IMG/VR virus record: IMGVR_UViG_2740892367_000002
Location: 1-64,000 of that record
Length of the DNA stretch: 64,000 bases
Strand: one strand, 5' to 3'
Source of the DNA: a virus
Lineage: Duplodnaviria > Caudoviricetes
Part shown: in pieces, positions 3,738 to 45,094 of the stretch
Numbering within the stretch: position 1 is the first letter of the stretch
Layout: each line of letters starts with the position of its first letter
Position numbers and translations under genes: made by a program
Notes under the pieces: generated by a model
Database searches by the model: none
Seen by the model: the letters and a program-made list of their open reading frames with translations, nothing else
What the model was told of the DNA's origin: nothing

Positions 3738-4827
3738 CTTCCGCCCCCGCATCGGCCTGCACCGGCTGGGACGCGCGGGCTTGCCATGCTATCCATGCGC
3801 CCTGTACCCAATTTTCTCGATATAGCCGATCGCCGTCTGGGTCTGTGTAAGTCTCGCGCGACCAGTACGGTTGCAGCCACGCTTCGAACGCCTCGCGCTC
3901 ATCCTGTGAGGGTTGCACCTGCCGGGCGGCGCGCAGCAACCGAATTACCTCCATGATCGCGGCGGCGCTGTCCCCGTTGTCTACGCGGGCATCGCCATAG
4001 CGTTGGACCGCACAGATGATTTCGTCTGGAACATTCGGAGCCTCGTGCTCATTCGGCAGCGCCGATGCGGCTGAGTATTGCGGCAACCCCACGGCTCGCA
4101 GCCATGAATTCACGCACTCGATGGTGTGTTTCTGACGCTCGGTCACGACAGCTGAAGCGTCGTCATTGACCGGCGCCCAATCTCCACGCTCGATTGCGCA
4201 TTCATCGCAGCGGCACTCAGGCGTCGAGCAATCGCGGACGACAGCCGGCGCCGCGCCCATTTCCCCAGGCTGGCGAGGGGCGGCGAGGAGGGACCGCAGG
4301 CCACGCAGAATGCTGATGTTTGGCTCTACCTCCGGCTCGCACCGGTAGTCAGCAATGCAGCAACTGATTGCTTGGTATTGTTCATCCGTCAGCCCATCCC
4401 CCGCCTGTTGCGGGGCGCTCGGGGCGGATTGGGCGACGATAGCGCGCACGCAATTGAAGAAGTCCTCTTCGCAGTCGAATTCCCTGATGGAATACACACC
4501 GGGAAAGACGAATCTGCAATAGTCGACGGCAACTTCGCGGATCTGTTCATCCGTCAGCGCTCCACCTTGCGGCTGCGGGGCGGCACGACGATTCCAGTCG
4601 CGTTCGATCTTCTCCGCGAGCCAATCGAACCCGTAGTGAATTGCTGCATGCGTCAATTCAACTCGGCAGTCCTTGCACTTCACTGTGATCTTGCGGCTCT
4701 TTGTGTAGGCATTACCCTGCGGGCGCAGCGTCGCTTCACCGCCGCAAAACGGGCACGGCATCAGACTATTCCCCGCATCTCCTGCGGTGATTGGCGAGCT
4801 ATTCGCCGCATTGGTGGTGTCGGTCAT
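3730..4827 (-). CDS. Lar-family Zn-finger fused to modular variable segments
   Basis: LMPCPFCGGEA...CKDC...WNRRA Lar signature, then short domains separated by A/P/Q-rich linkers. Confidence 0.75.
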   Translation of the reverse strand: MTDTTNAANSSPITAGDAGNSLMPCPFCGGEATLRPQGNAYTKSRKITVKCKDCRVELTHAAIHYGFDWLAEKIERDWNRRAAPQPQGGALTDEQIREVAVDYCRFVFPGVYSIREFDCEEDFFNCVRAIVAQSAPSAPQQAGDGLTDEQYQAISCCIADYRCEPEVEPNISILRGLRSLLAAPRQPGEMGAAPAVVRDCSTPECRCDECAIERGDWAPVNDDASAVVTERQKHTIECVNSWLRAVGLPQYSAASALPNEHEAPNVPDEIICAVQRYGDARVDNGDSAAAIMEVIRLLRAARQVQPSQDEREAFEAWLQPYWSRETYTDPDGDRLYRENWVQGAWIAWQARASQPVQADAGAEDA

Positions 4828-5237
4828 GCTTCCTCCGCAAACAGTTTGCTGAACCACTCGTCAGATTCAGCTTCGATCCGGTGCACGCGCCCCGGCAGAT
4901 CGTGATTCATCGGGTGACGGATGCCCCAGGTGCGCAACAGCGCATCGAAGGCAGCCTTCGGCGGAACAGGGCGCAGGTTCTGGCTCAACGATCCGCGACG
5001 GATGCGATTGCGCATCTGGAGTACTGCACTCTGGTCGGCGATGCTGTAGTACAGTCGGCGCTTGCCAGGCTCTGTCTTGCATACGCGAGTGGTCAGTGCA
5101 TCGCCCAAATCCTTGAGAATCTTCGTGACCGTCGTGTCGGCGCAGCGGATCTCACGGGAGAACGGGCCGGCGCAGATCTCGCGGCCAGACAGCAGCGCGT
5201 CGATAACCTTGATGCGCGTCGTGGTCTTATGCTTCAC
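4824..5237 (-). CDS. Phage hypothetical protein (possible winged helix)
   Basis: 137-aa ORF with 4-nt overlaps to neighbours. Confidence 0.55.
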   Translation of the reverse strand: MKHKTTTRIKVIDALLSGREICAGPFSREIRCADTTVTKILKDLGDALTTRVCKTEPGKRRLYYSIADQSAVLQMRNRIRRGSLSQNLRPVPPKAAFDALLRTWGIRHPMNHDLPGRVHRIEAESDEWFSKLFAEEA

Positions 5238-5407
5238 GCTGATCTCCGGCTCATCTTGTCCGAGCGGGCGCGGCGCACCTGGTTCTCGAGTTCCGACACC
5301 TGGTGTTCGAGTTCACGGATGCGGGCGGCAGCATCCTTGCGGAGCTGGCGCGAGTCGCAGTCTTCACAATAGGCGTTATGGGATTCGAGGCGGTCGATGA
5401 TGTCCAT
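5234..5407 (-). CDS. Small coiled-coil protein (not in ORF track)
   Basis: Read manually: MDIIDRLESHNAYCEDC...AARIRELEHQVSELENQ; stop overlaps next GTG. Confidence 0.6.
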   Translation of the reverse strand: MDIIDRLESHNAYCEDCDSRQLRKDAAARIRELEHQVSELENQVRRARSDKMSRRSA

Positions 5408-5427
5408 GGCAGTGCTCGATATGGGGT

Positions 5428-5500
5428 GGGGTACTCGCTGCGCCCTCCGGCTGTGCTGCGTCGCGTGCGACGGCCTCGACCGGGGTATCCGCTTTCCCCC
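5428..5500 (-). ncRNA. Candidate structured cis-RNA with loop-E motif
   Basis: Minus-strand GGG-GAA...AGUA-CCC closing, CCGG/CCGG helix and CGUCGC/GCGACG hairpin in an intergenic gap. Confidence 0.45.
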
Positions 5501-5505
5501 GTTGA

Positions 5506-6054
5506 TCAGTCTTCCTCGGCCGTGACCGGCTCCGGCTTCGGGTCGTCACCGAACAGCTCGCCCACCGTCTGCGGCGGCGGGGCAGTCAGCGTGATCGTGA
5601 TGTCCTGCTGAATGCGGTGGGTCAGAATGCCGCCGTCATGCTCGTCCGGATGCGCCACGACGCGGAACTTGAACAGCACCGTGCCGCCTTCCTGCGGGGA
5701 GATACGCACGTCCTTCACGGTGCAGTCGTCGAGCTGGATATTGCTGTCGCCACCAAGCCCGTAATCGATCTCGAGCGTGTAGCCCTTGCCCTCCCAGCCC
5801 CAGGCGAACGGCTGCATCTTCTGGAAGCGGCGCGCGGTCAGTGCATTGCGATCGGGCTCGACCAAATCCGCCTGGTCTTCGGCCTCCTTGTACAGCGCCT
5901 CACGCAGGCCATGCTGCAGCGAATCGAGCGCGGTGGCAGGCATTGCAGCCTCGAGCATCATATCGGCGGCCGGCATAGCCTGCTTGCCGTGCTTCTCGGC
6001 GCGCGGGTTGTAGTTCGTCAGCTTGACGGGTTGAGCGGTGGTGATCTCAAACAT
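5506..6054 (-). CDS. Phage hypothetical protein
   Basis: 182-aa ORF with GGAG RBS and host-like codon usage. Confidence 0.7.
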   Translation of the reverse strand: MFEITTAQPVKLTNYNPRAEKHGKQAMPAADMMLEAAMPATALDSLQHGLREALYKEAEDQADLVEPDRNALTARRFQKMQPFAWGWEGKGYTLEIDYGLGGDSNIQLDDCTVKDVRISPQEGGTVLFKFRVVAHPDEHDGGILTHRIQQDITITLTAPPPQTVGELFGDDPKPEPVTAEED

Positions 6055-6124
6055 CGTGGCTATCTCCGATGGTCAGGAATAAAAGAGCCCGGCGGACGTG
6101 GGACATCAGTTCCGGGCAAGGGGG

Positions 6125-6748
6125 TTATGCAGACTTGCGTTCCAGTTCGGCCACCATCAGTTGCAGCTCAGCTTCGAACTTGAGCAGCGCTTCCTTCAGG
6201 TGGGCGATGTATCCCTCGTCGCGGTCGATGCGCTGGTGATAGAGGCGCAGGCGCTCGCAGACGCGCGGGTCGTAGCTGTTGAACGACCACCAATTGCGGC
6301 CGGTCACGAACATGCAGCCTTGAACCTGCGGCATGTGTTCCTTCGGCATACCTTCCAGCCAGGTCTGGATGTGCACGGCTTCGTCCATCGGGCACTTGGA
6401 TTCGTAGCCGCCGGCCTTGCCGATCAGACCATCAGCGCTGCAGCCAATGAATGGATATCCCGGATGCACCATGAATTCGGCCGGCTCGACGATCAGTCCG
6501 GTTTCGAGTTCGAACGCCTCACGGGCGTATTGCTCGACCTCGGTGCCCCACGTCAAGGCCTTTCCGAACACCTCATGCATGGGCTCGCCGGACAAGCGTT
6601 CGAAAGCCAGTTCGCGCATGTATTTGTCGCGCGCGGCGGTTGGCTTGCCATCGCGCTTGACGGCCAGCACGTCAGCGAAGCGGCTGGCAGTGATCTTGCC
6701 GGCCCGCGCGCGGCGCCAGGCCTCGGTGCGTTGGAGCGGTTCACTCAT
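6125..6748 (-). CDS. YqaJ/lambda-exonuclease family nuclease
   Basis: QRTEAWRRARAGKITAS, CSADGL, ESKCP, PQVQG motifs. Confidence 0.88.
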   Translation of the reverse strand: MSEPLQRTEAWRRARAGKITASRFADVLAVKRDGKPTAARDKYMRELAFERLSGEPMHEVFGKALTWGTEVEQYAREAFELETGLIVEPAEFMVHPGYPFIGCSADGLIGKAGGYESKCPMDEAVHIQTWLEGMPKEHMPQVQGCMFVTGRNWWSFNSYDPRVCERLRLYHQRIDRDEGYIAHLKEALLKFEAELQLMVAELERKSA

Positions 6749-7628
6749 GATCGGCTCCATCGGTTGCCGGCGGCTGTTCCTCGCCAGTCATGGCCTTCAG
6801 GCGCTTCAGTTCTTCCTGCCCGATAGCGCGGCGGTCTTCCTTGGTCAGCCGGCCCCAAGCATCGGCAAGCGGCTCTGCGCCACCCTCGCGGGCAACCAGT
6901 TCCAGATCGGCGATCAAGTTCTCCAGGCGCGTATCGCGCTCGGCGGGCTGGGGCAGCGAGGCCGCTCCGATCTCAGCGGGAGACATGCGCGGCGCACTGT
7001 TCTGGATCAACGGTCCTGCGTCCTGCAGTTCGTCTGGGGTGTAGACACCCAAGATCACGTCAGGAGCGTGCAGGCGGGCCCAGCGCTTCGCTGCCAGATA
7101 GGCAAGCTGTTGCCGCGGATCAGACACCCAATTCGGCGAGTTGCGGTTATCGCCAACCTGCGACATTGCAACTTGCAGCACACGCGGCTCTGCTTCACCC
7201 TTCAACGTTGCCCATACGCAGCACCAGTGATCCTGGCTCTTGTCGGTCTTGCCATTAATGCCTTGCCAGTTCTCAGACCACTGGAAGTTCAGGCGGGTAG
7301 CAAGTGCTGGCGACGAGTTCAGGACGGCGATGACAAGCTGCGCTTCATAGCCCAACGTTCCGTTCACGAGATGGGTCTTCTGCGCAACAGCAAATGGATT
7401 CATGCCCCATTGCATAGCCTGCAGGCTGACGGCGAAGCAATCGCCTTGGCTATTCTGCAGATGCTTCGGAATCGTGGTGCGACCGCTTGCCATCAGGTCG
7501 GCGATACGGACCACGCTACGCATGGCTTCGTCGCTGAGCACCAGAGAGGCGGAACTGAAACCGGCTGCTGCGGGCGGCAGTGTTTCAATGTCGGTGATTT
7601 CGTTATCTACTACGGTCAGTTCGGTCAT
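6741..7628 (-). CDS. recT: RecT-family ssDNA annealing protein
   Basis: QAMQWGMNPFAVAQKTHLVNGTLGYEAQL and PDVILGVYTPDEL motifs. Confidence 0.85.
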   Translation of the reverse strand: MTELTVVDNEITDIETLPPAAAGFSSASLVLSDEAMRSVVRIADLMASGRTTIPKHLQNSQGDCFAVSLQAMQWGMNPFAVAQKTHLVNGTLGYEAQLVIAVLNSSPALATRLNFQWSENWQGINGKTDKSQDHWCCVWATLKGEAEPRVLQVAMSQVGDNRNSPNWVSDPRQQLAYLAAKRWARLHAPDVILGVYTPDELQDAGPLIQNSAPRMSPAEIGAASLPQPAERDTRLENLIADLELVAREGGAEPLADAWGRLTKEDRRAIGQEELKRLKAMTGEEQPPATDGADHE

Positions 7629-7635
7629 GGTGTGC

Positions 7636-8058
7636 TCACGCGTGCGTCCAGCGCTTGGAAGAAAGGATGTGGCTGATTTCGGATTGCGATACGCCGAAGC
7701 GCTTGGCCAGCTGATATTGATTGGCATCCTTGCTGCGTGGCACGTAGAGCTGACGGATCTCGATGATTTGCGCCTCGGTGAGCTTCGCATTGCCTACCAT
7801 CTCGCCGCGCACACGCCGGCCGCGCGCCGTCATGTCGTCCATGTTCTGGCGCTGAGTACCAGGTTCCAGGTGCTCAACGTTGATGCAGCGCGGGTTATCG
7901 CACTTGTGTCGGATCACGATGCCTTTCAGCGCATCCGGATGGCGGAACTCGTTCAGCGCATAGGCAAGGCGGTGCGCAAGGAACTGGCGGCCCATGAACT
8001 GGGTATAGCCATAGCCGTTGCGCCTCGTGGCACCTTGGAATTCAATGCAGTTGTTCAT
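7636..8058 (-). CDS. HNH endonuclease with C-terminal HTH
   Basis: AHRLAY...RHKCDNPRCINVEHLEPGTQRQNMDD. Confidence 0.85.
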   Translation of the reverse strand: MNNCIEFQGATRRNGYGYTQFMGRQFLAHRLAYALNEFRHPDALKGIVIRHKCDNPRCINVEHLEPGTQRQNMDDMTARGRRVRGEMVGNAKLTEAQIIEIRQLYVPRSKDANQYQLAKRFGVSQSEISHILSSKRWTHA

Positions 8059-8097
8059 GGTTCTCTCCTGCGCGAGACTCGGCCGCGCGTTGGTGGG

Positions 8098-8265
8098 TCA
8101 ATGCAGCTTGTTGGTCAGCGCCGGCACGTAGTGGCCGTTGTACTTCGTCGAGCCCAGCCACTTTTCGCCGAGCTCGCGGATCTGCTTCAGGCGGCGCGAC
8201 TCGAGCACCGCCAGCTTGATTTCTTCGTCGCTCAGGTCCGTGCGGACGTGGCGCAGGTCGGTCAT
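8098..8265 (-). CDS. Small hypothetical protein (not in ORF track)
   Basis: Read manually: MTDLRHVRTDLSDEEIKLAVLESRRLKQIRELGEKWL. Confidence 0.5.
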   Translation of the reverse strand: MTDLRHVRTDLSDEEIKLAVLESRRLKQIRELGEKWLGSTKYNGHYVPALTNKLH

Positions 8266-8273
8266 TTTCGGGA

Positions 8274-8399
8274 TCACAGTTGCCTCGCAATGTCGAGAAT
8301 CACCACCGCGGCAACGAAACCGATGCCGGCCAGCGTGGCGAGAAGGAGCCGGCGGTTGTTGCGCGCGCGGCGGATGATGGGGTCGTCAAGATCGATCAC
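8274..8399 (-). CDS. Small membrane protein (not in ORF track)
   Basis: 41 aa with hydrophobic LLLATLAGIGFVAAVVILDI segment; GTG start overlaps upstream stop. Confidence 0.5.
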   Translation of the reverse strand: MIDLDDPIIRRARNNRRLLLATLAGIGFVAAVVILDIARQL

Positions 8400-8584
8400 G
8401 ATTGGGCTCCAATCAGGTATCGGCCGATTGGCTTGCGCACGATGGCGGTGATCTCAGGCACAACACCAATCGCCTCGAAGATGCAGTCGATCGCCTGCTC
8501 TTGCGCATCTTCGCGGCCAGCGGCGACGACGTTCACCGTCGAGCCGTTGCTGAAATGCACGTCGTATTCGCGGGCGTCAGTCAC
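8396..8584 (-). CDS. Phage hypothetical protein
   Basis: 62 aa, GGAGG RBS, overlapping start/stop. Confidence 0.6.
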   Translation of the reverse strand: MTDAREYDVHFSNGSTVNVVAAGREDAQEQAIDCIFEAIGVVPEITAIVRKPIGRYLIGAQS

Positions 8585-8922
8585 AGCACACCTCCATTGC
8601 GCGGCAGCAGGTGATTCGGTGTGCGGGCCACGAGCGCCCGGAACTCGGCTTCGCAGCGCTCCACGGCCTCAGCCATCTCTCGATCGGTCTCGGCAACCAG
8701 GTGCGCGACGTCGGACAGGTATTGCTGGAACACCTGACGGCCCAGCGAGGCCAGCGCCGCGTCATCCAGCTTGTTGCGCAGCACGAAGTCAGCGACGGCG
8801 CCCAGATACGGGCCGGCCTCAATGTCGTTGTCGTTCGCGAAGTTCAGGCCGTCCTTCGAGACGACCATCGCAATCAGGCGTTCTGCGCCGGTGAAGTTCT
8901 GCGGGGATTTGGTGGCGGGCAT
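8581..8922 (-). CDS. First gene of the PL operon, hypothetical
   Basis: 113 aa, AGGAG RBS, directly downstream of PL. Confidence 0.65.
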   Translation of the reverse strand: MPATKSPQNFTGAERLIAMVVSKDGLNFANDNDIEAGPYLGAVADFVLRNKLDDAALASLGRQVFQQYLSDVAHLVAETDREMAEAVERCEAEFRALVARTPNHLLPRNGGVL

Positions 8923-8952
8923 CGCGGGCTCCTGTCAGAGGTTGCGCTGATT

Positions 8953-9018
8953 TGTGTAGCAGCGCTTGACAGATGCAAGTGTAGCAATACTTCCCACAAT
9001 GTCAAGCGTCACTACACA
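8953..9018 (-). promoter_or_regulatory. PL/OL of prophage 1: three operators
   Basis: TGTAGCN4CTT(G/C)(A/C)C-like boxes at 8953, 8978 and (inverted) 9000; minus-strand TTGACA-16 bp-TACACT. Confidence 0.75.
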
Positions 9019-9027
9019 TCGTGGGCG

Positions 9028-9054
9028 AAAAAAAGCCCGCTCGGCGGCGGGCTT
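9028..9054 (-). terminator. Intrinsic terminator of the cI-lipoprotein transcript
   Basis: GCCCGC stem followed by T7 on the minus strand. Confidence 0.75.
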
Positions 9055-9076
9055 GTCGCGGTATGGCGCTTTCCTG

Positions 9077-9745
9077 CTAGGGCTCAGAGTTAATGGGAAC
9101 TATCAATTTAAGGGTCTCTCTTGTATCGACGCCCAGATATGGGGCGGCAGCCCTTATCATCACTGGCAGGACCTTACGCAAGTCACCGGAGCTACCGGAA
9201 CTGACGATGGTCGTACTCCACAGCTCTACAGGTTTTCCTCCAGCAGTAGGTGGGGCGTAGGCCCCTACGTGAACGGATCGGGTGTAGTGGGTCTCCGAAT
9301 CCGTCGTTGTAACCACCCCTGTAACTCCATAAGTGGGGGTGAAATTCGTTGTAGACGTGAATCCTCCTCGATACGTCGAGCCATAGGTGGTGGCTGACGC
9401 CACGCCGGTTTGGCCGAATACGGGAATATCCCGAGTGGTTTGGATTGTTCGCGGGTCGCCGATCTTGTATGAGAGCATCACGACCATATCGGCAGATTCT
9501 AGTCGCTGAGATTTAAGATATCCGCGACGCTTCAATGCAGCGTCGAGATAGCTCGCGAACTCTTGGAACTGCAGGTCACCTTCATCGATATTTTTGTCGC
9601 CAGGGAACAAGATGTACGTCGTTTTCCCATTAGCCAGCGGGCTGGCCAGCGAACTCACGTTGATTTCGTAGCGCGGCTGCATCGATTGCGTTGCGCATCC
9701 GCTCAGCGCAGCGACCAAGACAGCTCCAAGAGCAATACTCTTCAT
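9077..9745 (-). CDS. Lipoprotein co-transcribed with cI (lysogenic conversion/exclusion candidate)
   Basis: MKSIALGAVLVAALSG-C lipobox; ATGA overlap with cI stop; lower GC than flanks. Confidence 0.75.
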   Translation of the reverse strand: MKSIALGAVLVAALSGCATQSMQPRYEINVSSLASPLANGKTTYILFPGDKNIDEGDLQFQEFASYLDAALKRRGYLKSQRLESADMVVMLSYKIGDPRTIQTTRDIPVFGQTGVASATTYGSTYRGGFTSTTNFTPTYGVTGVVTTTDSETHYTRSVHVGAYAPPTAGGKPVELWSTTIVSSGSSGDLRKVLPVMIRAAAPYLGVDTRETLKLIVPINSEP

Positions 9746-10392
9746 TCCGGAACCCATTTCCCGATGATTACCCCAATGATCGAGTCTTCGTCGGACAGCG
9801 ACTCGATCTCCTCTGGCCACTTTTTATTGAGTGGCTGCACCATACGCTTCCCGTTTTCAATGAGCAGCTGCCGAAACAGCGTCTCGTCCGTCCGCTTTTT
9901 ATGAACCAGGACCATGTTGCCACTAATTGCTGGGCGGGCTGGATCCACGGCAATGAAGTCCCCTTGGCTATAGGACTTCGGGCCGGTCGGGTCATACATA
10001 CTGTGACCCGGAACGGTTGTTATGAAAGCTTCTTGACTATGTGCAAAGGGGCACGGAATGCGCTCAAGGGTGCATAGCTCTTTCTCATCTGCCATTTTTT
10101 CCCTCCACTTTGGGGCCTCACTCATGTCAATCAGAGGGAGGCCCACCGGTCTGTGTAAGGGAATCGGCGTGCGATGTTCTGTGCTCACGGGAACTGAATT
10201 TCCGTTGAGCAGATGCTCCACAGATGTGCCAAAGAGCTTGGCTAGGCGGGAAAGTTTGTCTTGATCTGGGCGAGTGTCGCCGCGCTCCCAGGAGCCAACG
10301 GCGCTTCGTGTGATTCCGAAAGCGTCGCCTACTTGCTGGAGCGTCATGTTTTTTTGAAGGCGTAAAGCCTTGATTCTTTGGCCGACATTCAT
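9742..10392 (-). CDS. cI: CI-like repressor (XRE HTH plus degenerate S24 domain)
   Basis: MTLQQVGDAFGITRSAVGSWERG HTH; GHSM...GDFIAVDP S24-like C-terminus; divergent from cro. Confidence 0.88.
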   Translation of the reverse strand: MNVGQRIKALRLQKNMTLQQVGDAFGITRSAVGSWERGDTRPDQDKLSRLAKLFGTSVEHLLNGNSVPVSTEHRTPIPLHRPVGLPLIDMSEAPKWREKMADEKELCTLERIPCPFAHSQEAFITTVPGHSMYDPTGPKSYSQGDFIAVDPARPAISGNMVLVHKKRTDETLFRQLLIENGKRMVQPLNKKWPEEIESLSDEDSIIGVIIGKWVPE

Positions 10393-10393
10393 G

Positions 10394-10477
10394 GTTAGCG
10401 TAACTTAACACTTGCCTGTGTAGCGTTGCTTCCCTATACTGTGTAGCGACACTTGACGGAACTGGAGTCGCTACACA
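10394..10477 (+). promoter_or_regulatory. PR/OR of prophage 1
   Basis: TTGCCT-17 bp-TATACT (10412-10440); boxes TGTGTAGCGTTGCTTCCC and TGTGTAGCGACACTTGAC match the OL boxes. Confidence 0.78.
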
Positions 10478-10731
10478 TGGAAACCACCCGCTCTGAAGAA
10501 CTGCGGCGCGCGATCGAGGACGCTGGCGGCGCTGTCGCCGTTGCAACCTTGCTCGATGTTTCCCGCCACGCCATCTACGACTACATACGTCGTGGTCGCG
10601 TACCCGCCGAGCACTGCCCAACGATCGAGCGCCATTGCTCCGGTCGCGTTCGCTGCGAAGTCTTGAATCCATCAGTTGACTGGAACTACCTGCGCGAGCA
10701 TTCAGCTCACGCGGAGCCCGCAGCTGCCTGA
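10477..10731 (+). CDS. cro: Cro-like regulator (YdaS-type)
   Basis: AGGAVAVATLLDVSRHAIY...VPAEHCPTIE...LNPSVDW. Confidence 0.82.
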   Translation: METTRSEELRRAIEDAGGAVAVATLLDVSRHAIYDYIRRGRVPAEHCPTIERHCSGRVRCEVLNPSVDWNYLREHSAHAEPAAA

Positions 10732-10739
10732 GGACAGCC

Positions 10740-11054: not shown

Positions 11055-11057
11055 CAC

Positions 11058-37864: not shown

Positions 37865-38039
37865 TCCGCCCGAGCCGCAGGTTGTCGTGAAGACGCGCAT
37901 AGTGGACACGGCATGCGATTGGACTCGGCCGATCTATGTGGACAAGGCCGACGTGCTGACCGATGACACCGCCAAATCGATTTTGGCCCACAACAGGGCT
38001 GGCCAGAAAGTGTGCGGCTGGAAGCCCAAATCGAAATAG
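37797..38039 (+). CDS. o-spanin (Rz1-like lipoprotein)
   Basis: LTLAG-C lipobox; overlaps i-spanin 3' end in another frame. Confidence 0.78.
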   Translation: MKMLMLVLCLTLAGCCTTSGANDPPEPQVVVKTRIVDTACDWTRPIYVDKADVLTDDTAKSILAHNRAGQKVCGWKPKSK

Positions 38040-38069
38040 CTATTGGGCTAGATCACTGTTCCGAATTCG

Positions 38070-38160
38070 TTGGAAGATCCCGAAAATGACCACGATGGCA
38101 AGCCGTTTGCGGGTATGGTCATATTCCAATTAACTCACGCAACGCTTTGATTTTTAACGA
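38070..38160. promoter_or_regulatory. Prophage 1 right att arm: arm-type and IHF-like sites
   Basis: TTGGAAGATC, inverted TTGGAATATG, and minus-strand AATCAAAGCGTTG matching WATCAANNNNTTR. Confidence 0.55.
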
Positions 38161-38170
38161 TATTGGTTGC

Positions 38171-38219
38171 GGATTGTGATTCCTGTCGTCGTGGGTTCGA
38201 GTCCCATCAGCCACCCCAA
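38171..38219 (+). repeat. att core copy 2 (tRNA-His 3' fragment); junction of the two prophages
   Basis: Identical to 405-453; lacks the tRNA 5' half. Confidence 0.96.
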
Positions 38220-38274
38220 AATTCCCTTACGGATCATGAAGTTAGCGCGGTAGTTTGCCTTTCATGATGCGGAA

Positions 38275-38324
38275 TTTCCCACGGAAATTCAGATTTTCCC
38301 ACGGCGCCTACATGGCGCCGTTTT
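38275..38324. promoter_or_regulatory. Prophage 2 arm-type repeats and hairpin terminator
   Basis: TTTCCCACGG at 38275 and 38295; ACGGCGCC-TACAT-GGCGCCGT-TTT. Confidence 0.55.
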
Positions 38325-38336
38325 CATTTCTCCCAT

Positions 38337-39554
38337 TTATTCTGTGGCGGAAGCTCGTTTCACCTTGCGTCGATCGTAGTGGCGATGGGTGGTCGACGGG
38401 TTGGCGTGCGCGGCGAAATCGTAGGCATCCGCCGAGCGTTGCTCGAGCTTCGTCGTGATTGCCGCCGGGCGGATGTCGAGCGTCGAGAAATAGGCCGCGT
38501 GCTCGGCAATCGAATACCCCGACGTCCAGGTGCCCGCGCCCCTGTCCTTCCGCTTGGCGGCGGACTGCTCCCGCTCGGCGCGCAGTGCGTTGGCCGCCTC
38601 GGCGTCGAAGGTCGATATCCATTCCCACATGGCATCCTGCCAAACCGACCCCCAGCCGCTCTTGCTGTAGGGCTGGCCCCTCCTGTTCGGGAACAGGTAC
38701 AGGCTCGTGACTACGGTCTTCTTCGTCGTGGTCTCAGCGGCTGTGCGCTTTGCGCGCTCCACCACCACACGCAGCCGCGGCGACCAGTCCCGAACCTTGA
38801 CCACCTCCGCTTCGCCTTTCTTCCGCTTGGCGCCGACAACGCGCACGCCGTCATCAGTGAGTCCGGACAGGTGGAAAGGGCGCACTTCGGCGGCGCGGAA
38901 CCCGGTCAGGTAGGTGAACATGGCCGCGCACCCCATCGTGCGGTAGGCGTGGCCTTGCCGAATCGCCCACAGGTAGAAGCGCACGATCTGGCTACGCGAC
39001 ACGGCGCGCACGTCCTTGTCAGCCTTGTTGAGCATCATCCCGACAAACGGATTGGCGTCGATCAGCCCCCATCGCACGGCGAAGTTGCAGATGGTCGACA
39101 TTTGCGACAGTTCCTTGTTCGCCTTGATAGGCGCACCGCTCTTGGCGCGCGCGTCGAGAAACTGATAGCCGTGCACCGTCTTCATGCCGCTGGGTGCCAT
39201 CTTCCCAAAGAAGCGCGCCAGGACGTCATAGGCGGCCTGCCGGACGGCTTTACCTTCCTTGGACTGGTCCCGGTAGTGCACTGGGTCCACGTCCTGCCGG
39301 AAACGATCGATCATGTCAGCAACCGACCCGGCGACGATCTGGCCGGCCTGGATGTCCAGCGCCTTGCGCTTGGCTATGCGCTCGGCCTCGGCAATCGCCT
39401 TGCGATCGCCGATCGGTGCAGACGACAGGGTTTCGCTCCTGCCGTCCGGGTACTTGTAGTAGAAGGAAACCTTCTTCGCGCCGATGTATTTGATCAGCCG
39501 GTCGATGCCGGTGGATTCCTTACGCAAACGCTGCGAGGTTCGGCGTGCTGTCAT
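38337..39554 (-). CDS. int: Tyrosine recombinase, prophage 2 integrase
   Basis: TGFRAAEV, DIRPAA, AAHAN, RHYDRR; same family as 561-1658. Confidence 0.9.
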   Translation of the reverse strand: MTARRTSQRLRKESTGIDRLIKYIGAKKVSFYYKYPDGRSETLSSAPIGDRKAIAEAERIAKRKALDIQAGQIVAGSVADMIDRFRQDVDPVHYRDQSKEGKAVRQAAYDVLARFFGKMAPSGMKTVHGYQFLDARAKSGAPIKANKELSQMSTICNFAVRWGLIDANPFVGMMLNKADKDVRAVSRSQIVRFYLWAIRQGHAYRTMGCAAMFTYLTGFRAAEVRPFHLSGLTDDGVRVVGAKRKKGEAEVVKVRDWSPRLRVVVERAKRTAAETTTKKTVVTSLYLFPNRRGQPYSKSGWGSVWQDAMWEWISTFDAEAANALRAEREQSAAKRKDRGAGTWTSGYSIAEHAAYFSTLDIRPAAITTKLEQRSADAYDFAAHANPSTTHRHYDRRKVKRASATE

Positions 39555-39747
39555 ACTTTGCCTGCCCCTTCGTTTCCTCGATGCCCAGCTTTCGGTTGTA
39601 GTACGCCTTGGCCACCTTGGGCAGGCCGTTCTTGTCCAGCACGTACCGCCAGTGCTCCCGATCGAGCCATTTGATCATCGCCTGTCGCTGGTTCGACTTG
39701 CAGCCGACTAGGTCGGCCAGCTCCATTGCGGTGAGAAAGTCGCTCAT
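39520..39747 (-). CDS. xis: Excisionase-like protein (DUF4224-type)
   Basis: MSDFLTAMELADLVG...NGLPKVAKAYY. Confidence 0.78.
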   Translation of the reverse strand: MSDFLTAMELADLVGCKSNQRQAMIKWLDREHWRYVLDKNGLPKVAKAYYNRKLGIEETKGQAKYDSTPNLAAFA

Positions 39748-39856
39748 CCCGTACTCCAATCCGCCACTCTTGGCGGGTGACTGCCACGACCCGGCGAGCC
39801 CGATTCATCATTTCTTGCATTCTGGTGTTTAGCAGCGGGTGTTTCCCCGCCTGCAG

Positions 39857-40126
39857 TCAGTTCTTCAATTCGGCGCGGCGCCGGCGCAGGATCTCGCCCA
39901 GGCCGGCCCGGTCGATCTCGATGGCGCCCAGCTTCACGGCGCGCACGCGCATCGCCTTGCAGATGTCGAAGTGCTCCTGGTAGGTGCCTTCCTTCTGTAT
40001 GTGGCGCGGGTGGACTCCGATGCTCTGAGCCATAGCGATCAACTCGGCCTTTGTGTCGGCCACCATGTGGTACATGCACATTCCGCGATAGGGTGCAGCC
40101 ATGTCGTCAACGTAGACTGCCATCAC
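39857..40126 (-). CDS. DUF4031-like protein
   Basis: VYVDD...HMVADT..EL..MA..IG...EHFDI...RAVKLGA. Confidence 0.75.
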   Translation of the reverse strand: MMAVYVDDMAAPYRGMCMYHMVADTKAELIAMAQSIGVHPRHIQKEGTYQEHFDICKAMRVRAVKLGAIEIDRAGLGEILRRRRAELKN

Positions 40127-40581
40127 GCCACTCCCTGATCTACGGATGTGCGGGCGTGCTGCTCACGCAGGATGGCAGCCACGTCGGCCGGCACGTCGAA
40201 GAAGCCCAATGCGCCCTTGCACGGGACGAACGGCAGCGCTTTAGCATCTACGATCTGGAAGCCGAACTGACCTTCCATGTGCCACTGCGATTGGCGCGCG
40301 CGATCTGGCACGCAGTCCGTAATGGTGGCCACACCGACGATGCCGCCGCGCTCCATCTGCTCGAACTTTGGCAGCGCGATCAGCGCTGCATCGTAGGGTC
40401 CTGTTTCGTAGAGTTCGGAGAGATAGTCCTTTACATCCTGGTACTCGCCGCGGGTCATGCCCTTGCTGGCGTGGATCAGCACGCGTCCCCGGAAACTGGT
40501 GCGCCAGGTTCGGTTTTCGATGTCCTTGAACCCTTGGGCGATCAGCCACGCCCACGGTTGGCGGATAGAGAGGGCTTTCAT
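40123..40581 (-). CDS. ASCH domain protein
   Basis: MKALSIRQPWAWLI..G.KDIENRTW...RGRVLIHA...CKGALGFF. Confidence 0.88.
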   Translation of the reverse strand: MKALSIRQPWAWLIAQGFKDIENRTWRTSFRGRVLIHASKGMTRGEYQDVKDYLSELYETGPYDAALIALPKFEQMERGGIVGVATITDCVPDRARQSQWHMEGQFGFQIVDAKALPFVPCKGALGFFDVPADVAAILREQHARTSVDQGVA

Positions 40582-41036
40582 GCGTCCCCCCTCGCAGCAG
40601 CGGCGATAGCGGCGCGCTCGATAGTGAAGCCGTCCGGGTCAATGCCTGCGTCTAGGCATATCTGCCACGCACTCCTGCTCCCGACTGCGAAAACGTCCAT
40701 CGCCAAAACCCAGTTCGCGCGCTGCTTGTTGTAGTGGACTGGCGTGATTCGACGCACGTTCGACATGATGTAGAACGGTGTGAAGTTCGCACGCACCGCG
40801 TCCACCTTCACTGACCCGCTCGCAACGTCATCCGGCAGGGGGCGGCGGTTCCAGGCGGCGATGACTTCAGCGCCAGCAATACCAGGGGAATTGGCGCTGT
40901 ATTGAAGCGATAACACCGCATCGCAGTCCTCGCATTCAATGCGGCCTACCCAACCAGAATGCTCGATTTGCTCGACCTCCGCATTGCGAGCGGCGCCCCC
41001 ACAAAACGGGCACACCTTCAGTTCCGTATCACTCAT
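40578..41036 (-). CDS. Lar-family restriction alleviation protein (with extension)
   Basis: LKVCPFCGG...CEDC...AAWNRR. Confidence 0.75.
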   Translation of the reverse strand: MSDTELKVCPFCGGAARNAEVEQIEHSGWVGRIECEDCDAVLSLQYSANSPGIAGAEVIAAWNRRPLPDDVASGSVKVDAVRANFTPFYIMSNVRRITPVHYNKQRANWVLAMDVFAVGSRSAWQICLDAGIDPDGFTIERAAIAAAARGDA

Positions 41037-41065
41037 CTTTGTTCCTCCCGATCTCGGCGGCGCAT

Positions 41066-41740
41066 TTATGCGAACAGTGGTGTTTGTTCTTGCTCTGCCC
41101 TAAGGCGATCACAAGCCCTATCGAAATATGTCGGGTCGATCTCTACGCCGACGAACGGTAAGCCGTGGCGCGCTGCGGCGATTCCAGTGGTACCGCTTCC
41201 CATGAACGGGTCGAAGACCACGGTACCGGCAGGCAACTTGCATTGCGCGATAACCCAATACATCAGTGCTACAGGCTTCTGGGTAGGATGGACGCGCACA
41301 CCGCCACGGCTCACGTTCTCCTCCCCGGCGCGCACCATGCCGCGCCACTTGTGCGAATAGAGCCGGGCCGGGCCGCGCAAATTGGTCCACGCCAATTCAC
41401 AGTCGGCTTGGTGGTCGCTGGTGCTGCCATCGCGCTTGTCCCACACCAGCCAACTTGATGCGTCTGGTAGACGGCTGCCGAAGTGATTGCCGCCGAACAG
41501 CACAACAGTTTGAAAGTCGAGGAACGGCGCCGGGTCAAATGGCTTGTCATCGCCCACGATGGAGAAGTCATATTCCACGGTTCTGCGGCTCATGTTCCAT
41601 TTGTTCCGCGAACTACCCGTCAGCTTTGCCAGGTTGATGCCGTAGGGTGGATCGGCAATCAGCGCGTGGCTTCGCGGTGTCTCCGCCAGCAGTTCGCGGC
41701 AATCCCCACAGTACAGCGTCGCGGTACCGATTTGCTCCAT
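41066..41740 (-). CDS. DNA amino-methyltransferase (N6-A/N4-C, beta class)
   Basis: DPPYG, HPTQKPVALM, DPFMGSGTTG, GVEID. Confidence 0.9.
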   Translation of the reverse strand: MEQIGTATLYCGDCRELLAETPRSHALIADPPYGINLAKLTGSSRNKWNMSRRTVEYDFSIVGDDKPFDPAPFLDFQTVVLFGGNHFGSRLPDASSWLVWDKRDGSTSDHQADCELAWTNLRGPARLYSHKWRGMVRAGEENVSRGGVRVHPTQKPVALMYWVIAQCKLPAGTVVFDPFMGSGTTGIAAARHGLPFVGVEIDPTYFDRACDRLRAEQEQTPLFA

Positions 41741-41745
41741 GCGTA

Positions 41746-42675
41746 TCACGCTGCGTCTCCCCTCTCTGGATTCGGGGCGGCGGCGAGCGGCGTGATCAGG
41801 AATTTCCCGGAGCTGACGCGGAAGCCTTCGTCCATTAGGAATGTCCACGTCCCTTCATCAAAGTTCGCCGTTGCGCTGACGCCGATGAACGATTCATCTG
41901 GCACCGCCGCACCCGGCGCGTCATGGCCGGCAGGCGAGGCGGCGAGGTTCGCCAGCACCGCACTGATGCACGATGGGGCGATGCCGATTAGTTTCCTGTC
42001 ATCCGTATGCGCCCAATGCGGGATCTGGTAACGGAAATGTGCAAATAGACGACGCAAGCGGGCCGCGAGGAATTCGATTTCTCCCGCGTCCAGCGTCATC
42101 GCCTCCCCCTGCGCTTGCTGCGCTGCTGGGGCGGTGTATAGCGTGCGCCGCCAAGATGGGCCAAGCCGCTCGTATTCGCTCTTGGTCACGTCGTGCCAGC
42201 TATCTTGGTACAGGCGCTGATACACCGGCTCCGCCGCACCGCGCATCTTGGAGCCAATACCCCAGAACTCGGCAAGCCAATGCCCGGACGGCGGGACATT
42301 CTCGTTCTGCTGGCCCAACGCGATAGCGCCACGGATAGCGTCGATACAGTCCTTGAAGCCATTCGAGCGTGCATCCGCAGCCGCCCCGCGCATCTGCGCA
42401 AGCTCGGCGGAGAGGGAGCGGGCGTAGGCGATCAGGTCAGGGAACGCCTGATGCATCGCCACCGCGAAGGCAGCGTTTGCGTCGCGCTGCGCCTCATCGG
42501 TGCTGTCAGTGCCACAGAACATGGCGATTTGTTGCTGCGCACTACCGTTCGTGAACGTCAGAACAGGTCCGCCCAATACGACGGCGCCGATACGTCCGCC
42601 TTTCACCACCCAGTCTTTCGTGGTGGCGGCATGCATGCGCTCCAGCGCATCCAGGTCAATCAGGGTGTTAGGCAT
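41746..42675 (-). CDS. ead/Ea22-like modular protein
   Basis: IDLDALERMHAATT...DANAAFAVA N-terminus; AEPV...LYTAP linkers. Confidence 0.65.
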   Translation of the reverse strand: MPNTLIDLDALERMHAATTKDWVVKGGRIGAVVLGGPVLTFTNGSAQQQIAMFCGTDSTDEAQRDANAAFAVAMHQAFPDLIAYARSLSAELAQMRGAAADARSNGFKDCIDAIRGAIALGQQNENVPPSGHWLAEFWGIGSKMRGAAEPVYQRLYQDSWHDVTKSEYERLGPSWRRTLYTAPAAQQAQGEAMTLDAGEIEFLAARLRRLFAHFRYQIPHWAHTDDRKLIGIAPSCISAVLANLAASPAGHDAPGAAVPDESFIGVSATANFDEGTWTFLMDEGFRVSSGKFLITPLAAAPNPERGDAA

Positions 42676-43549
42676 TGCTTTCCTCGGCAATTTCGGCTTG
42701 CACAATCGCGGACTTCTCGCAGCCGACACACATCGGCCGGAACATATCGGTCTGGTTCGGGTTGTGGCCGCCGGCAGGAGGACGTCCCTCCCATCCCCAC
42801 GTGAACCCACATTGCAGGACGCGCTGTTGCAGCTTGTCGATGCGCTCCCCGAACGAAGGATCAACGGCCCGCCATCTTGCAAGTTCTCCAGGATGTGCAA
42901 AAGCGCCGCAGCCGCACTCGCCGCTCATACCCAGCTCTTTGGTAACTGGGTTCTCAGGCATCCCGCTCGTAGCGTTATAGGCATCCCGTTGTTGTTTGGT
43001 CCACCAGTACAGCGGATTTATCCAAACTTGGGCGCCGACCTTGTTAATTTCGCGACCTGCATAGCCCATTCGGATCAGGCTTTCATCGTGGCGGATACCG
43101 GATGCGATCAGCACCTTTGCGCTGCGCGGATGGCCTTTCTTCGCACGGCGGACCAGTTCCCGGACGCAACGCTCTTTCAGGCGCGCGTACATCATCTGGT
43201 GTCCATCCGGGCCTGGGAACCCGAACTCCGCACAGAGATCGTCATAACTCTGGCCGCAATCCTCCAGTGCCCGAATCTCGTGCAAATTCCACCCATATAT
43301 TTTGCAAGTGTCGCGCACGCTCTGGCGAGTCCGCTCGATGCCGATACCCGTATTTGCATGGAATGGCTCGCATCCCGGAACGTTATTCATCATCCAGTGC
43401 GCCACAGCCCGGCTATCGTTCCCGCCAGAGAACCCCACATAGATGGCGACGGGCTTGTATTGCTCGATAGCCCGGCGCACGATTTCCATCGGGGAAAGGA
43501 TGCTGCTCTTGCTAGACGTGAGGCTGAAGATGTCGCTCAGATCCATCAC
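42668..43549 (-). CDS. PP-loop (PAPS reductase-like) protein
   Basis: VGFSGGNDS, HANTGIG, GIRHDES, SGECGCGAFA, MCVGC. Confidence 0.82.
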   Translation of the reverse strand: MMDLSDIFSLTSSKSSILSPMEIVRRAIEQYKPVAIYVGFSGGNDSRAVAHWMMNNVPGCEPFHANTGIGIERTRQSVRDTCKIYGWNLHEIRALEDCGQSYDDLCAEFGFPGPDGHQMMYARLKERCVRELVRRAKKGHPRSAKVLIASGIRHDESLIRMGYAGREINKVGAQVWINPLYWWTKQQRDAYNATSGMPENPVTKELGMSGECGCGAFAHPGELARWRAVDPSFGERIDKLQQRVLQCGFTWGWEGRPPAGGHNPNQTDMFRPMCVGCEKSAIVQAEIAEESNA

Positions 43550-44160
43550 GCCCCCTCCCCACCGTCGCGTGCCTGTTGCGACTGCTCGCGGGACATGGCG
43601 GTGATGCTGGCCTGAACGTCGCGGTCAAGTCGCAGCGGGATCACGCCTTCCTCGGGATACTCGGTGTACCAGGCGAACAGGCCAGGGCCGGAATCGTTGC
43701 CGTCGTCATCGATGGAGCCACTCAGGCGACCGATGCACATCTCAGTGTCCATCTGTTCATGGTCGCGGTCGATTTCCGGCATGACATCAGGTGCCGCCAG
43801 TTCAAGGACGTCCAGCAGTTCCTTGGCGGAGACGCATAAGACGCTCGACGCCACCGCATCGGCCTGCACCTGCTGCGACTGTTCGCTTGGCTGCGGCTGG
43901 CGGGCGGCGAGTTTCTCCCACCACGCCGCATTAAATGCGTGCATCGCTTCTGCTGGCGAATCACCGAACCCCGCTACACCATCCTGCAAGTTGTCGCCGT
44001 AGAGCGCGCACCACTGATTCCCGTCAATAAAGAGAGCCGGTCGATATAGGGCGCTCGGGAGTTCGCCTTGCGCTGCCGCTGCCTGCCATGCTGCTCCGGC
44101 CATCGTTGCGGCGTGCGCAATAGCATTTGCTGCCATGCCTTGGTATTCATCGTTAAGCAT
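43546..44160 (-). CDS. Modular phage early protein
   Basis: DGNQWCALYGDNLQDGVAGFGDSP domain, QQVQADA linker, second domain. Confidence 0.65.
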   Translation of the reverse strand: MLNDEYQGMAANAIAHAATMAGAAWQAAAAQGELPSALYRPALFIDGNQWCALYGDNLQDGVAGFGDSPAEAMHAFNAAWWEKLAARQPQPSEQSQQVQADAVASSVLCVSAKELLDVLELAAPDVMPEIDRDHEQMDTEMCIGRLSGSIDDDGNDSGPGLFAWYTEYPEEGVIPLRLDRDVQASITAMSREQSQQARDGGEGA

Positions 44161-45094
44161 TGCTGTTTCCCTCCCCAGCGGTCTGCGGTTGCTGGGCGGT
44201 GCGACCCGGTACACAGTCAAAGCAATATTCATCATTGGGCCTGCCGCACTTGGGACAAATGCCCGCCTCGCGCTCATCCTGCTGCGCCGATGCAGCATCA
44301 TTGGATGCTGGCAGGTCAAAATCAGCCGTTGCTGCCGTCTTCGGACGGTTGGCGAATCGCGCATTCATAGCAGCACGTTGACGGTCTTCGATTTCATCGC
44401 GCGTCGATGCTGACGGCACAGATGCAGTTGCCTCTAGCACATACCGCAGCATTTCTTCTGCTTCTAGTGCGCTGAGCAAGTTCGTGCCAGTGCGTCCGGG
44501 CTTACCCGGCATACCATCGGGATAAACGCTCGCAGGAACGGGCCACGCGAGGAAGCGATTGACCAGCGCCTTGATGTCCGCCCCCGCGCCCACTTCCCCA
44601 GGCTGGCGAGGGGCGGCGGACAGGTCGGCACAAATCTTCGGTTCTGCGGCCAGCGCCTTAACAACGGCGCGCAAGTGGCCCTTGATAGAAGTTGCAGGCG
44701 TTTCATCCCAAGTCCGGCAGGCTACGGCCATCATGTGGCTGTGCAAATTTTTTGCCTGCTGCTCGGTCAGCGAAACATCACGGGCACGAATCCCTTCCTT
44801 GCGAACTTGCGCAACGATGTCGCAGAGGCTGGCTTGTTTTGCGGCGGCATCACCATTCAGCAGCACATCGAGTTCGCGCACCATACGTTGATGGTCTGCA
44901 AACGCAGTCTCATAGTCGTCCACCGTCAGCCCATCCCCCGCCCCTTGCTTGGCGAGGGCGGCGCGGTAGCCTTCCCATGCGCTGTCTCGCTTGCATTCCA
45001 GCGATGCTTCGTGCGTGAACCAGTGCTGGAATTCCTTCCACTGACGGTTTTCGGCTTCCCGCTCATCGCCAGCCGGGGTGTGTTGGTCGGTCAT
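44153..45094 (-). CDS. Modular phage early protein
   Basis: Short domains separated by GDGLT, AAPRQPGE and QDEREA linkers. Confidence 0.68.
   Translation of the reverse strand: MTDQHTPAGDEREAENRQWKEFQHWFTHEASLECKRDSAWEGYRAALAKQGAGDGLTVDDYETAFADHQRMVRELDVLLNGDAAAKQASLCDIVAQVRKEGIRARDVSLTEQQAKNLHSHMMAVACRTWDETPATSIKGHLRAVVKALAAEPKICADLSAAPRQPGEVGAGADIKALVNRFLAWPVPASVYPDGMPGKPGRTGTNLLSALEAEEMLRYVLEATASVPSASTRDEIEDRQRAAMNARFANRPKTAATADFDLPASNDAASAQQDEREAGICPKCGRPNDEYCFDCVPGRTAQQPQTAGEGNSNA

Follow-up and report, generated by a model that had tools for sequence, protein, structure and literature searches.

How can two phage genes look unrelated and share short DNA blocks in the same order and frame? 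The question is raised by a 64,000-nucleotide (nt) stretch of DNA (the window), the first 64 kb of one 95,863-base virus record (IMGVR_UViG_2740892367_000002; Caudoviricetes), which holds two prophages. An early gene of phage 1 (gene A) and an early region of phage 2 (43546-45094) share four such blocks. An earlier model-generated annotation (the sequence-only reading) took them for joints of a fixed scaffold that act as in-frame recombination sockets. Comparison with related loci supports the view that ordered, in-frame joints delimit exchangeable cassettes. We consider it probable that the joints are homologous-recombination crossover points in a hyper-mosaic early-gene family of temperate phages, mostly of Cupriavidus, with homogenized joints and diverse cassettes.

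Four DNA blocks shared by otherwise unrelated early genes

The positions and identities reported by the sequence-only reading proved exact. The blocks match at 20/20 (4386-4405/44923-44942), 34/35 (4251-4285/44584-44618), 18/18 (3889-3906/44264-44281), and 17/17 positions (3747-3763/43854-43870), and the 34/35 block has an exact core of 25 nt (4261-4285/44594-44618). Exact-match comparison and reading-frame mapping placed all four on the same strand, collinear, and each in the frame of its minus-strand gene. They are the sole same-strand exact matches of at least 12 nt between 3700-4900 and 43500-45100, and they were not found elsewhere in the contig. Comparison of 1-30000 with 30001-64000 gave just eight same-strand exact matches of at least 15 nt: the four blocks, a 49-nt tRNA-His attachment (att) repeat, and three bare 15-mers. 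The blocks and the att repeat are the sole collinear exact matches of at least 17 nt between the prophages.

Composition does not explain blocks of this length. Among 1,000 triplet shuffles of the second region, none reached a 17-mer; the longest shared word was 16 nt (once) and usually 10 to 11 nt. The number of shared 12-mers was 36, versus a mean of 0.34 in the shuffles. The four-block pattern is thus confirmed as genuine and not due to chance. By BLASTP, gene A matched the upstream gene of the phage 2 region (B1) at the joints and in a single weak high-scoring segment pair (HSP; A 140-202/B1 93-170; 31% identity, E = 0.001), which takes in joint Jc. Against the downstream gene (B2), gene A gave no match below E = 10. 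These comparisons and the cassette clustering described below agree with the earlier claim that the segments between blocks are mostly unrelated and not diverged homologues. The phage 2 region does hold the blocks; it resolves into two overlapping open reading frames (ORFs), B1 and B2, and not one gene. The genes and their joints are as follows (lengths in amino acids [aa]; n, number of loci or sequences in the coverage profile described below).

3730-4827, minus strand: gene A of phage 1, scaffolded multi-cassette early gene; 365 aa from MTDTT, ORF open to 4857
4783-4827, minus strand: joint N0, common N-terminus MTDTTNAANSSPITA; 3 to 4 other loci at ≥85% identity in the coverage profile
4582-4764, minus strand: Lar zinc-ribbon cassette of gene A; aa 32-92 of the 375-aa ORF; PF14354, phrog_599
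4540-4584, minus strand: joint Ja, AAPQPQGGALTDEQI; 5' end of a 100% identical segment common to locus L022
4387-4428, minus strand: joint Jb, SAPSAPQQAGDGLT; includes block 4386-4405; up to n = 10 loci
4252-4284, minus strand: joint Jc, AAPRQPGEMGA; the 34/35 block; n = 12 loci, population consensus run of 40 nt
4039-4071, minus strand: degenerate internal joint Jd', AASALPNEHEA; coverage peak n = 9 to 10
3889-3912, minus strand: joint Jd, (PS)QDEREA; block 3889-3906; 18/18 other sequences
3742-3765, minus strand: joint Je, PVQADAGA; block 3747-3763; 3 codons before the gene A stop
44153-45094, minus strand: gene B1 of phage 2, upstream half of a scaffolded gene; 313 aa, ends after a zinc-ribbon cassette
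44924-44941, minus strand: joint Jb in B1, AGDGLT; block match
44585-44617, minus strand: joint Jc in B1, AAPRQPGEVGA; block match
44264-44296, minus strand: joint Jd in B1, AASAQQDEREA; block match and coverage profile
43546-44160 (about), minus strand: gene B2 of phage 2, downstream half; 204 aa from MLNDEY, 8-nt overlap with the B1 end
43849-43872, minus strand: joint Je in B2, QVQADAVA; block match and coverage profile
43579-43599, minus strand: joint Jf, common C-terminal AMSREQS; n = 17 in the coverage profile

Relatives share the joints in order and differ in cassettes

A word-based protein search with gene A retrieved 21 proteins with one common scaffold. From its start to Jc, the scaffold reads MTDTTNAANSSPITA, AAPQPQGGALT, SAPSAPQQAGDGLT, and LLAAPRQPGEMGAGV; from Jd to the end, it continues with ASAQQDEREA, AQQVQADAGAV, often PAAESDKRD, and a C-terminal AAMSREQS, with unrelated sequence between the motifs. 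The named sources of these proteins were Cupriavidus metallidurans, Cupriavidus sp. SHE, and Cupriavidus sp. TKC. At the DNA level, joint patterns degenerate at third codon positions matched 9 (Jc), 8 (Je), and 22 (Jd) viral loci, together with four metagenome loci and one species-representative genome, Cupriavidus pauculus UM1, in which a 124,733-base contig carries the ordered scaffold with different cassettes. Near-duplicates (L016, L018, L020, L021, L023, L024, and L025) were dropped before counting, as were L039, L045, and L051, three chance matches among the 13 loci newly found with the degenerate Jd pattern. After these removals, 17 distinct alleles remained besides the two of the window. 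Outside the window, the joints thus occur in no fewer than 17 distinct loci, where they flank differing cassettes, and in dozens of proteins; these relatives are labelled mostly Cupriavidus. An exact Jb 20-mer, sought in 596 gigabases (Gb), had 10 matches in unrelated phyla and none in Cupriavidus and was taken as chance.

When genes A and B were compared with the alleles by blastn-short, coverage rose in sharp peaks at the joints alone, with none between; the peak at Jd comprised 18/18 other sequences. The profile also brought out N0, Ja, Jd', and Jf at the coordinates listed above. All four joints proposed by the sequence-only reading are therefore present, and their number was too low: N0, Ja, and Jd' exist in gene A and Jf in B2. 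Jd' may be a decayed copy of ASAQQDEREA.

The canonical joint order is N0, Ja, Jb, Jc, Jd, Je, Jg, Jf. This order was kept in 41 of 42 nonduplicate proteins with at least two joint types and in 163/164 adjacent steps, the exception being L043. In that locus (1157-2113, minus strand), the ORF continues beyond the C-terminal joint into a Lar domain (aa 246 to 307). A Lar unit that in other loci lies N-terminally or forms its own gene is C-terminally fused in L043.

When 39 protein entries were divided at their joints, 188 cassettes (≥12 aa) resulted, in 106 similarity clusters, of which 72 are singletons; one cluster, c1, is a single-linkage artifact of multi-domain N-terminal segments. Cassettes are about 20 to 200 aa long, in proteins of 200 to 750 aa. 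Their neighbors vary: c7 precedes c31 (in the window), c12, or c4; c3 precedes c4 or c2; and c2 precedes c5, c102, or c29. Some proteins differ in one slot, as do P0004 and P0015 (both NCBI sourced) and P0016 and P0017.

The scaffold that the sequence-only reading called fixed is ordered in nearly all proteins, but it is not rigid. Joints may be missing or repeated with a cassette between the copies (two Jc in L013 and three Jd in L015), and a few cassette types change slot; the zinc ribbon after Jd in B1 lies between Jc and Jd in P0020. The scaffold gene is split in B1/B2 of the window and in L049, and the scaffold of gene A ends with Je, lacking the final cassette and the C-terminal joint. 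Wider searches found the same cassettes beside other Ala/Pro-rich linkers in Cupriavidus and Burkholderia, and also as stand-alone small proteins. The joint set of the window is therefore one variant of a more widespread beads-on-a-string arrangement. A whole-protein query with P0016 missed genome G001, although G001 carries a scaffold gene; whole-protein searches are thus poor at detecting such mosaics.

The source organism has at least three scaffold loci, and its Logan de Bruijn unitigs break exactly at joints (Jc and Jb). The third locus, which lies off the contig, matches Ja, Jb, Jc, and Je and then a cassette like that of L017/P0006. Short islands of identity also lie outside gene A: a small ORF upstream shares 39 nt (5244-5282) with L017, and an ORF downstream shares 59 nt (2736-2794) with L014, each at 92 to 93% identity, and several more such islands are found downstream in L014 and L019. 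Joint-like islands may extend beyond gene A along the whole early operon.

Joints are conserved at synonymous sites

Pooled over all pairs of alleles, codon mismatch in the joint cores is 4.7% (129 of 2,739 synonymous-capable codons). Codon identity at joints was 88 to 100%, versus 33 to 43% predicted from codon usage alone; codon usage in the scaffold genes is weakly biased. As a control, we used homologous cassettes in the same allele pairs, of which 14 pairs had at least 45% amino acid identity. Eight of these look recent, with 0 to 15% of identical-residue codons differing, and six are old, with 35 to 59% differing. In the six old pairs, 116/244 cassette codons differ, compared to 4/108 codons in the joints of the same allele pairs (Fisher p = 1.5e-18). 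The comparison of synonymous divergence that the sequence-only reading called for thus showed joints to be far more alike than cassettes.

Individual pairs show the same contrast. The close cassette relative of B1 in L046 (103 aa, 83% amino acid identity) has 40/82 codons synonymously different, versus 1/16 joint codons. In L014 and L019, two cassettes have 5/98 and 15/30 codons different; the joints have 0/25. In blastn between loci, joint HSPs span 19 to 60 nt at 90 to 100% identity, and the adjoining cassette HSPs are at 76 to 83%. Population consensus runs at the joints have sharp edges and measure 40 nt (Jc), 30 nt (Jd), 28 nt (Jg), 25 nt (Jf), and 19 nt (Jb).

Exchange endpoints and a model for cassette exchange

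Endpoints of exchange were taken from segments common at ≥95% identity over ≥90 nt and compared with a predeclared joint mask that covers 15.6% of nucleotides. In this small sample, 7/10 interior endpoints fell inside the mask; on inspection, the remaining three lay at the end of the N-terminal joint or at a degenerate Je. The clearest such segment links gene A with L022: the two share 334 nt, spanning Ja to Jc, at 100% identity and are unrelated on either side.

In the model that we favor, gene A and B1 plus B2 would be alleles encoding a chain of small domains, most of them unrelated. The cassettes would be connected by Ala/Pro/Gln/Gly-rich linkers, each position with its own unique sequence, and the joints would act as in-frame crossover sites between coinfecting or coresident phages. 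The source organism has at least three scaffold loci, so coresident alleles give an opportunity for exchange. With one crossover in a joint, everything to one side would be swapped; with two, a single cassette or several. The products would retain order and frame, given that the joints are all unique and in frame. Repeated exchange would uncouple joints from cassettes and, together with heteroduplex correction, keep the joints homogeneous (concerted evolution), with the cassettes staying old and diverse. Recombination at the joints is the probable source of the pattern, and we infer a homogenizing process there. The enzymes would presumably be those of the phages (RecT or ERF with YqaJ) or host RecA; by Pfam, each phage has a YqaJ exonuclease gene and one for an annealing recombinase, RecT in phage 1 and ERF in phage 2. 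Rad52-like phage recombinases are reported by De Paepe et al. to drive mosaic formation on short, diverged homologies, and the minimal pairing segment quoted there is 23 to 27 bp for Red-beta and 31 to 34 bp for RecA (PMC3945230). The median exact runs with unrelated flanks for Jc (25 nt), Jd (28 nt), and Ja (23.5 nt) reach the quoted segment. The in-frame sockets of the sequence-only reading accordingly keep their order, the DNA identity of their joints, and endpoints within them; their recombination step is a reading of comparisons between alleles.

Several points weigh against this model. The endpoint sample is small (n = 10). All 24 runs consist of contigs, which are unable to show rare hybrid junctions, and the support is comparative; RNA-library contigs from these runs, some as long as 72 kb, may reflect carried-over DNA. 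The alleles are nonindependent, and many come from metagenome or Logan assemblies that are possibly chimeric at joint repeats, although the pattern also holds in proteins of NCBI isolate records. Where the flanks are unrelated, the median exact run is only 16 nt for Je, 18 nt for Jg, and 18.5 nt for Jb, and between the window's own alleles Jc (25 nt) alone reaches the quoted minimal pairing segment. Part of the joint conservation plausibly has other causes: the Jf tail and the gene A Je end double as the ribosome-binding region of the next gene with a stop/start overlap, and DEREA of Jd also opens a widespread domain that can stand without the joint (P0053 and P0058). The structure model discussed below is poor (mean predicted local distance difference test score [pLDDT], 48.8). 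Finally, the distribution is narrow. The Jc pattern occurs in 1 of 78 species-representative genomes of the genus, and the scaffold was found in no isolated phage among 50,697 records; INPHARED phages gave single-cassette matches only, at coverage of ≤17%.

A bolder version of the crossover model, which we regard as doubtful, holds the joints to be a maintained assembly standard. Unique, ordered, in-frame DNA sockets would be kept identical across otherwise unrelated phages, and lineages keeping them would draw on a shared pool of more than 100 micro-domain cassettes (Lar and host-takeover or anti-defense domains), reassorted in one step by their own RecT/ERF. If true, this would amount to selection for evolvability acting on synonymous sites and to a natural counterpart of overlap-based cloning standards.

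Alternative explanations

The joints might instead be kept for protein or translation function, as through linker mechanics, processing sites, or pausing for cotranslational folding. The mosaic would then stem from illegitimate recombination, with selection keeping junctions at domain borders (the Hendrix model) and no special part for recombination at joints. The joints are indeed Ala/Pro/Gln/Gly rich and are predicted, in a low-confidence model, to form coil between helices. The frame stays open over 300 to 750 aa in many combinations, so that a single polypeptide must be under selection, and phage polyvalent proteins have been proposed to be processed into units (PMC5512222). Several codons of the joints are minority choices, the same in every allele (Jc has CCT twice and also GGG; Jg has AGG and Jf has TCC), and could fit pausing. 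However, selection on protein leaves unexplained that synonymous sites are near-invariant throughout the joints, including the 2-fold codons GAT, GAG, CAG, and GAA, which are used at about 50:50 elsewhere, and illegitimate joining would not remake the same 25 to 40 nt of DNA every time. The seven joints also differ mutually, with no single protease or pausing motif apparent, a Pfam scan found 0 peptidase domains in 23 family proteins, and recent exchange endpoints fall inside joints. We therefore judge this explanation unlikely. Synonymous conservation would also fit joints that are cis-acting nucleic acid elements, such as targets of a phage nuclease, Chi-like stimulators, or regulatory or RNA elements, where the element and not plain homology drives or permits exchange. 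An HNH endonuclease gene (7636-8058) adjoins RecT, and the ribosome-binding regions in the Jf tail and the gene A Je end would suit a regulatory role. Jb, Jc, and Je have in common the coding-strand heptamer GCGGGGG, which occurs in the 95.8-kb contig in 14 minus-strand (coding) copies versus 1 plus-strand copy, with about 5.5 expected on each. Yet just 4 of the 14 copies are inside joints, and linker composition could account for the heptamer, whose translation yields Ala-Gly-type residues. The joint sequences differ from one another, they gave no sign of a shared structure (no search was aimed at one), and nothing connects the HNH gene with them. We know of no family of such cis-acting joint elements and consider the explanation improbable. 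Four GCGGGGG copies lie within 82 nt at 57701-57782.

An artifact is very improbable. Chance matches in GC-rich DNA could mimic joints, as the 10 chance matches of the exact Jb 20-mer in unrelated phyla illustrate, and chimeric assemblies mis-joined at short repeats could inflate the combinatorics. The Logan unitigs do break exactly at joints, where short-read assemblers could mis-join, and many of the proteins come from Logan or metagenome sources; short-read assemblies should be expected to break or mis-join at joints in general. Against both forms of artifact, no shuffle reached 17 nt, two alleles lie on the single contig of the window, and the ordered scaffold appears with different cassettes on the C. 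pauculus UM1 contig and in the NCBI-listed proteins of C. metallidurans, Cupriavidus sp. SHE, and Cupriavidus sp. TKC. Chimeras, moreover, would not yield saturated synonymous divergence in cassettes beside identical joints. Homologous crossover at the joints remains the reading that we prefer.

Protein function and structure

Lar, a restriction-alleviation domain, is the sole recognized domain in the family and was found in gene A and four relatives. In gene A (aa 32 to 92), the PF14354 score is 34.7 bits, above the cutoff of 28.6 (E = 2.1e-8), but TIGR03655 scores 32.9, below its cutoff of 39.6; the family match is thus by Pfam only. Across the 23 family proteins, the Pfam scan gave Lar only, plus two subthreshold matches. 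Position and neighbors suggest an early host-takeover or anti-restriction role, and the Lar domains, as the one line of evidence from the cassettes themselves, suggest an anti-defense role. The pool of more than 100 uncharacterized small domains, drawn from an early Lar-containing region, is accordingly a source of host-takeover or anti-defense candidates.

PDB sequence searches with gene A and B1 gave no match. An AlphaFold model of low confidence (mean pLDDT, 48.8) puts the joints in coil between helical or hairpin units, which hints that the joints form coil between small folded units.

Genomic setting of the two prophages

The window carries a tRNA-His gene at 377-452, the last 49 bases of which occur again at 38171-38219 (exact-match comparison). 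Each 49-nt copy of the tRNA-His 3' end is followed by a leftward integrase gene (561-1658 and 38337-39554); the window therefore holds two prophages in tandem at one tRNA-His. Past 39 kb, the 95.8-kb contig has no third att copy, not even one 12-mer, which leaves phage 2 without a defined right end there. In both prophages, a leftward early operon runs from the recombination module down toward the integrase, and genes A and B lie between the integrase and YqaJ/RecT (phage 1) or YqaJ/ERF (phage 2). The RecT, ERF, and both YqaJ matches all exceed their Pfam family cutoffs. The neighboring features are as follows.

2895-3737, minus strand: PAPS-reductase-like (PP-loop) gene of phage 1; PF01507 31.5 bits, phrog_424 1e-49
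6125-7790, minus strand: recombination module of phage 1; YqaJ exonuclease 6125-6760 (PF09588, 85.8 bits) and RecT 6741-7790 (PF03837, 96.7 bits)
41746-42900, minus strand: downstream ORF of phage 2 with two pool cassettes; tblastn of the cassette library
42668-43549, minus strand: PAPS-reductase-like gene of phage 2; PF01507 31.9 bits, phrog_424
46983-48289, minus strand: recombination module of phage 2; YqaJ exonuclease 46983-47618 (PF09588, 39.3 bits) and ERF 47615-48289 (PF04404, 40.2 bits)

The PP-loop gene that the sequence-only reading placed after the region in both phages is PAPS-reductase-like in each, by its match to PF01507. The 3' part of Je in gene A doubles as a Shine-Dalgarno (SD)-like run before the probable PAPS-reductase start at 3737. 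The ORF listing starts this gene at ATG 3752, within Je; ATG 3737 is the more likely start, as judged from the G-rich joint end that precedes it and the overlap with the gene A stop. In phage 2, the tail after Jf likewise encodes an SD-like run and a stop/start overlap with the next gene.

The ORFs farther downstream did not bear out their earlier description as ead/Ea22-like: apart from Lar, 2591-3019, 41746-42900, A, B1, and B2 have no Pfam or NCBIfam match, to the ead/Ea22 family or any other. In tblastn, the phage 2 ORF at 41746-42900 proved to contain a segment 67% identical to the Jc-to-Jd cassette of L013 (41941-42105) and one 43% identical to the Jb-to-Jc cassette of P0003 (42427-42636), with a degenerate Jd-like linker, AASPAGHDA, at 41917-41943. 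Neighboring early genes therefore use the same cassette pool.

Other genes of the early regions include, in phage 1, the HNH endonuclease ORF (7636-8058), with which the RecT ORF overlaps at its 5' end. In phage 2, the region at 45800-46960, which adjoins the YqaJ/ERF genes, encodes a fusion of an RdgC domain (364 bits) with an FtsK gamma (KOPS-binding) domain. A stand-alone Lar gene (40578-41036), above both the Pfam and NCBIfam cutoffs, directly adjoins an N6/N4 DNA methylase gene (41066-41848).

Comparison with known systems

The scaffold family and its joint motifs, joint peptides included, are undescribed in the literature searched, with subscription journals and supplements outside its scope. 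By location, between integration genes and exo/bet-type recombination genes, the family resembles Ea22 of the lambdoid exo-xis region, which has a conserved N-terminal part, phage-specific C-terminal domains, and a common terminal K/R-G-E (Dydecka et al. 2020, PMC7093339). The scaffold proteins similarly end in ...KGGE, ...GGGE, or ...GGERG. However, Ea22 has one variable C-terminal domain, and the parts of that paper covered here describe no multi-joint scaffold or DNA-level joints (PMC7093339); the scaffold proteins, in turn, have no sequence match to any Ea22/ead model.

Polyvalent proteins, known from phages and from conjugative elements, also combine many conflict-related domains in a single chain, and their architectures vary widely (Iyer et al. 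2017, PMC5512222). Conserved linkers are not mentioned in the portions consulted of that survey or of one on phage domain shuffling (PMC10684548). Polyvalent proteins, as described there, are large, delivered with DNA, and marked by hallmark enzymatic or peptidase domains; the proteins here have 200 to 750 aa, belong to an early operon, and show Lar only.

In polymorphic toxin loci (with the demarcation motifs VENN in CDI and PxxxxDPxGL in Rhs proteins) and in the Neisseria pilE/pilS mini-cassettes, a conserved in-frame motif marks the site at which modules are swapped by homologous recombination. Such genes have a single demarcation motif each, and their silent or orphan cassettes lie in the same genome. 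The scaffold family, in contrast, has several distinct joints in series, its proposed exchange is between phage genomes, and no toxin domain was found.

The closest precedent is the T-even gp38 adhesin, on which Tetart et al. reportedly worked in 1998. In gp38, hypervariable segments lie between glycine-rich motifs whose sequence and synteny are strictly conserved (Trojet et al. 2011, PMC3157838). The choice of segment at each variable position is limited, and phage crosses swap segments with crossovers in or near the conserved motifs (PMC3157838). Strictly ordered conserved motifs part variable segments here as well (41/42 proteins; 106 cassette clusters). The gp38 motifs are proposed to be the structural core of one receptor-binding domain with short variable loops, whereas the joints appear to be linkers between separate, unrelated domains of 20 to 200 aa. 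The present family differs further in being an early nonstructural gene, in having more than 100 cassette clusters, and in the yardstick for its DNA conservation, namely homologous cassettes at saturation.

Short conserved boundary (linker) sequences are said to have entered the modular theory of phage evolution with Susskind and Botstein and with Clark et al. in 2001. The origin of mosaic junctions has been debated for decades, between homologous recombination at conserved linkers and random illegitimate joining plus selection. The standard objection to the linker view is that conserved boundary sequences are missing at most junctions, and Pope et al. (2011), in the sections consulted, set out the boundary-sequence idea without such sequences visible at most junctions (PMC3029335). 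The scaffold family would be an unusually clean positive case. With two alleles on a single contig and at least three within a single organism, beside RecT and ERF genes, it makes the question directly testable. As in the boundary-sequence model, homologous recombination is proposed at short conserved sequences flanking swappable modules; short conserved DNA was found at module borders, and endpoints were found in the boundaries, in a small sample. The boundary-sequence model concerns borders of genes or gene blocks, whereas here seven boundary sequences occur in frame and in a fixed order within one ORF. Unlike the boundaries of that model, the joints are demonstrably more conserved than the modules that they separate: their synonymous sites are frozen beside saturated homologous cassettes, and recent exchanges terminate in them.

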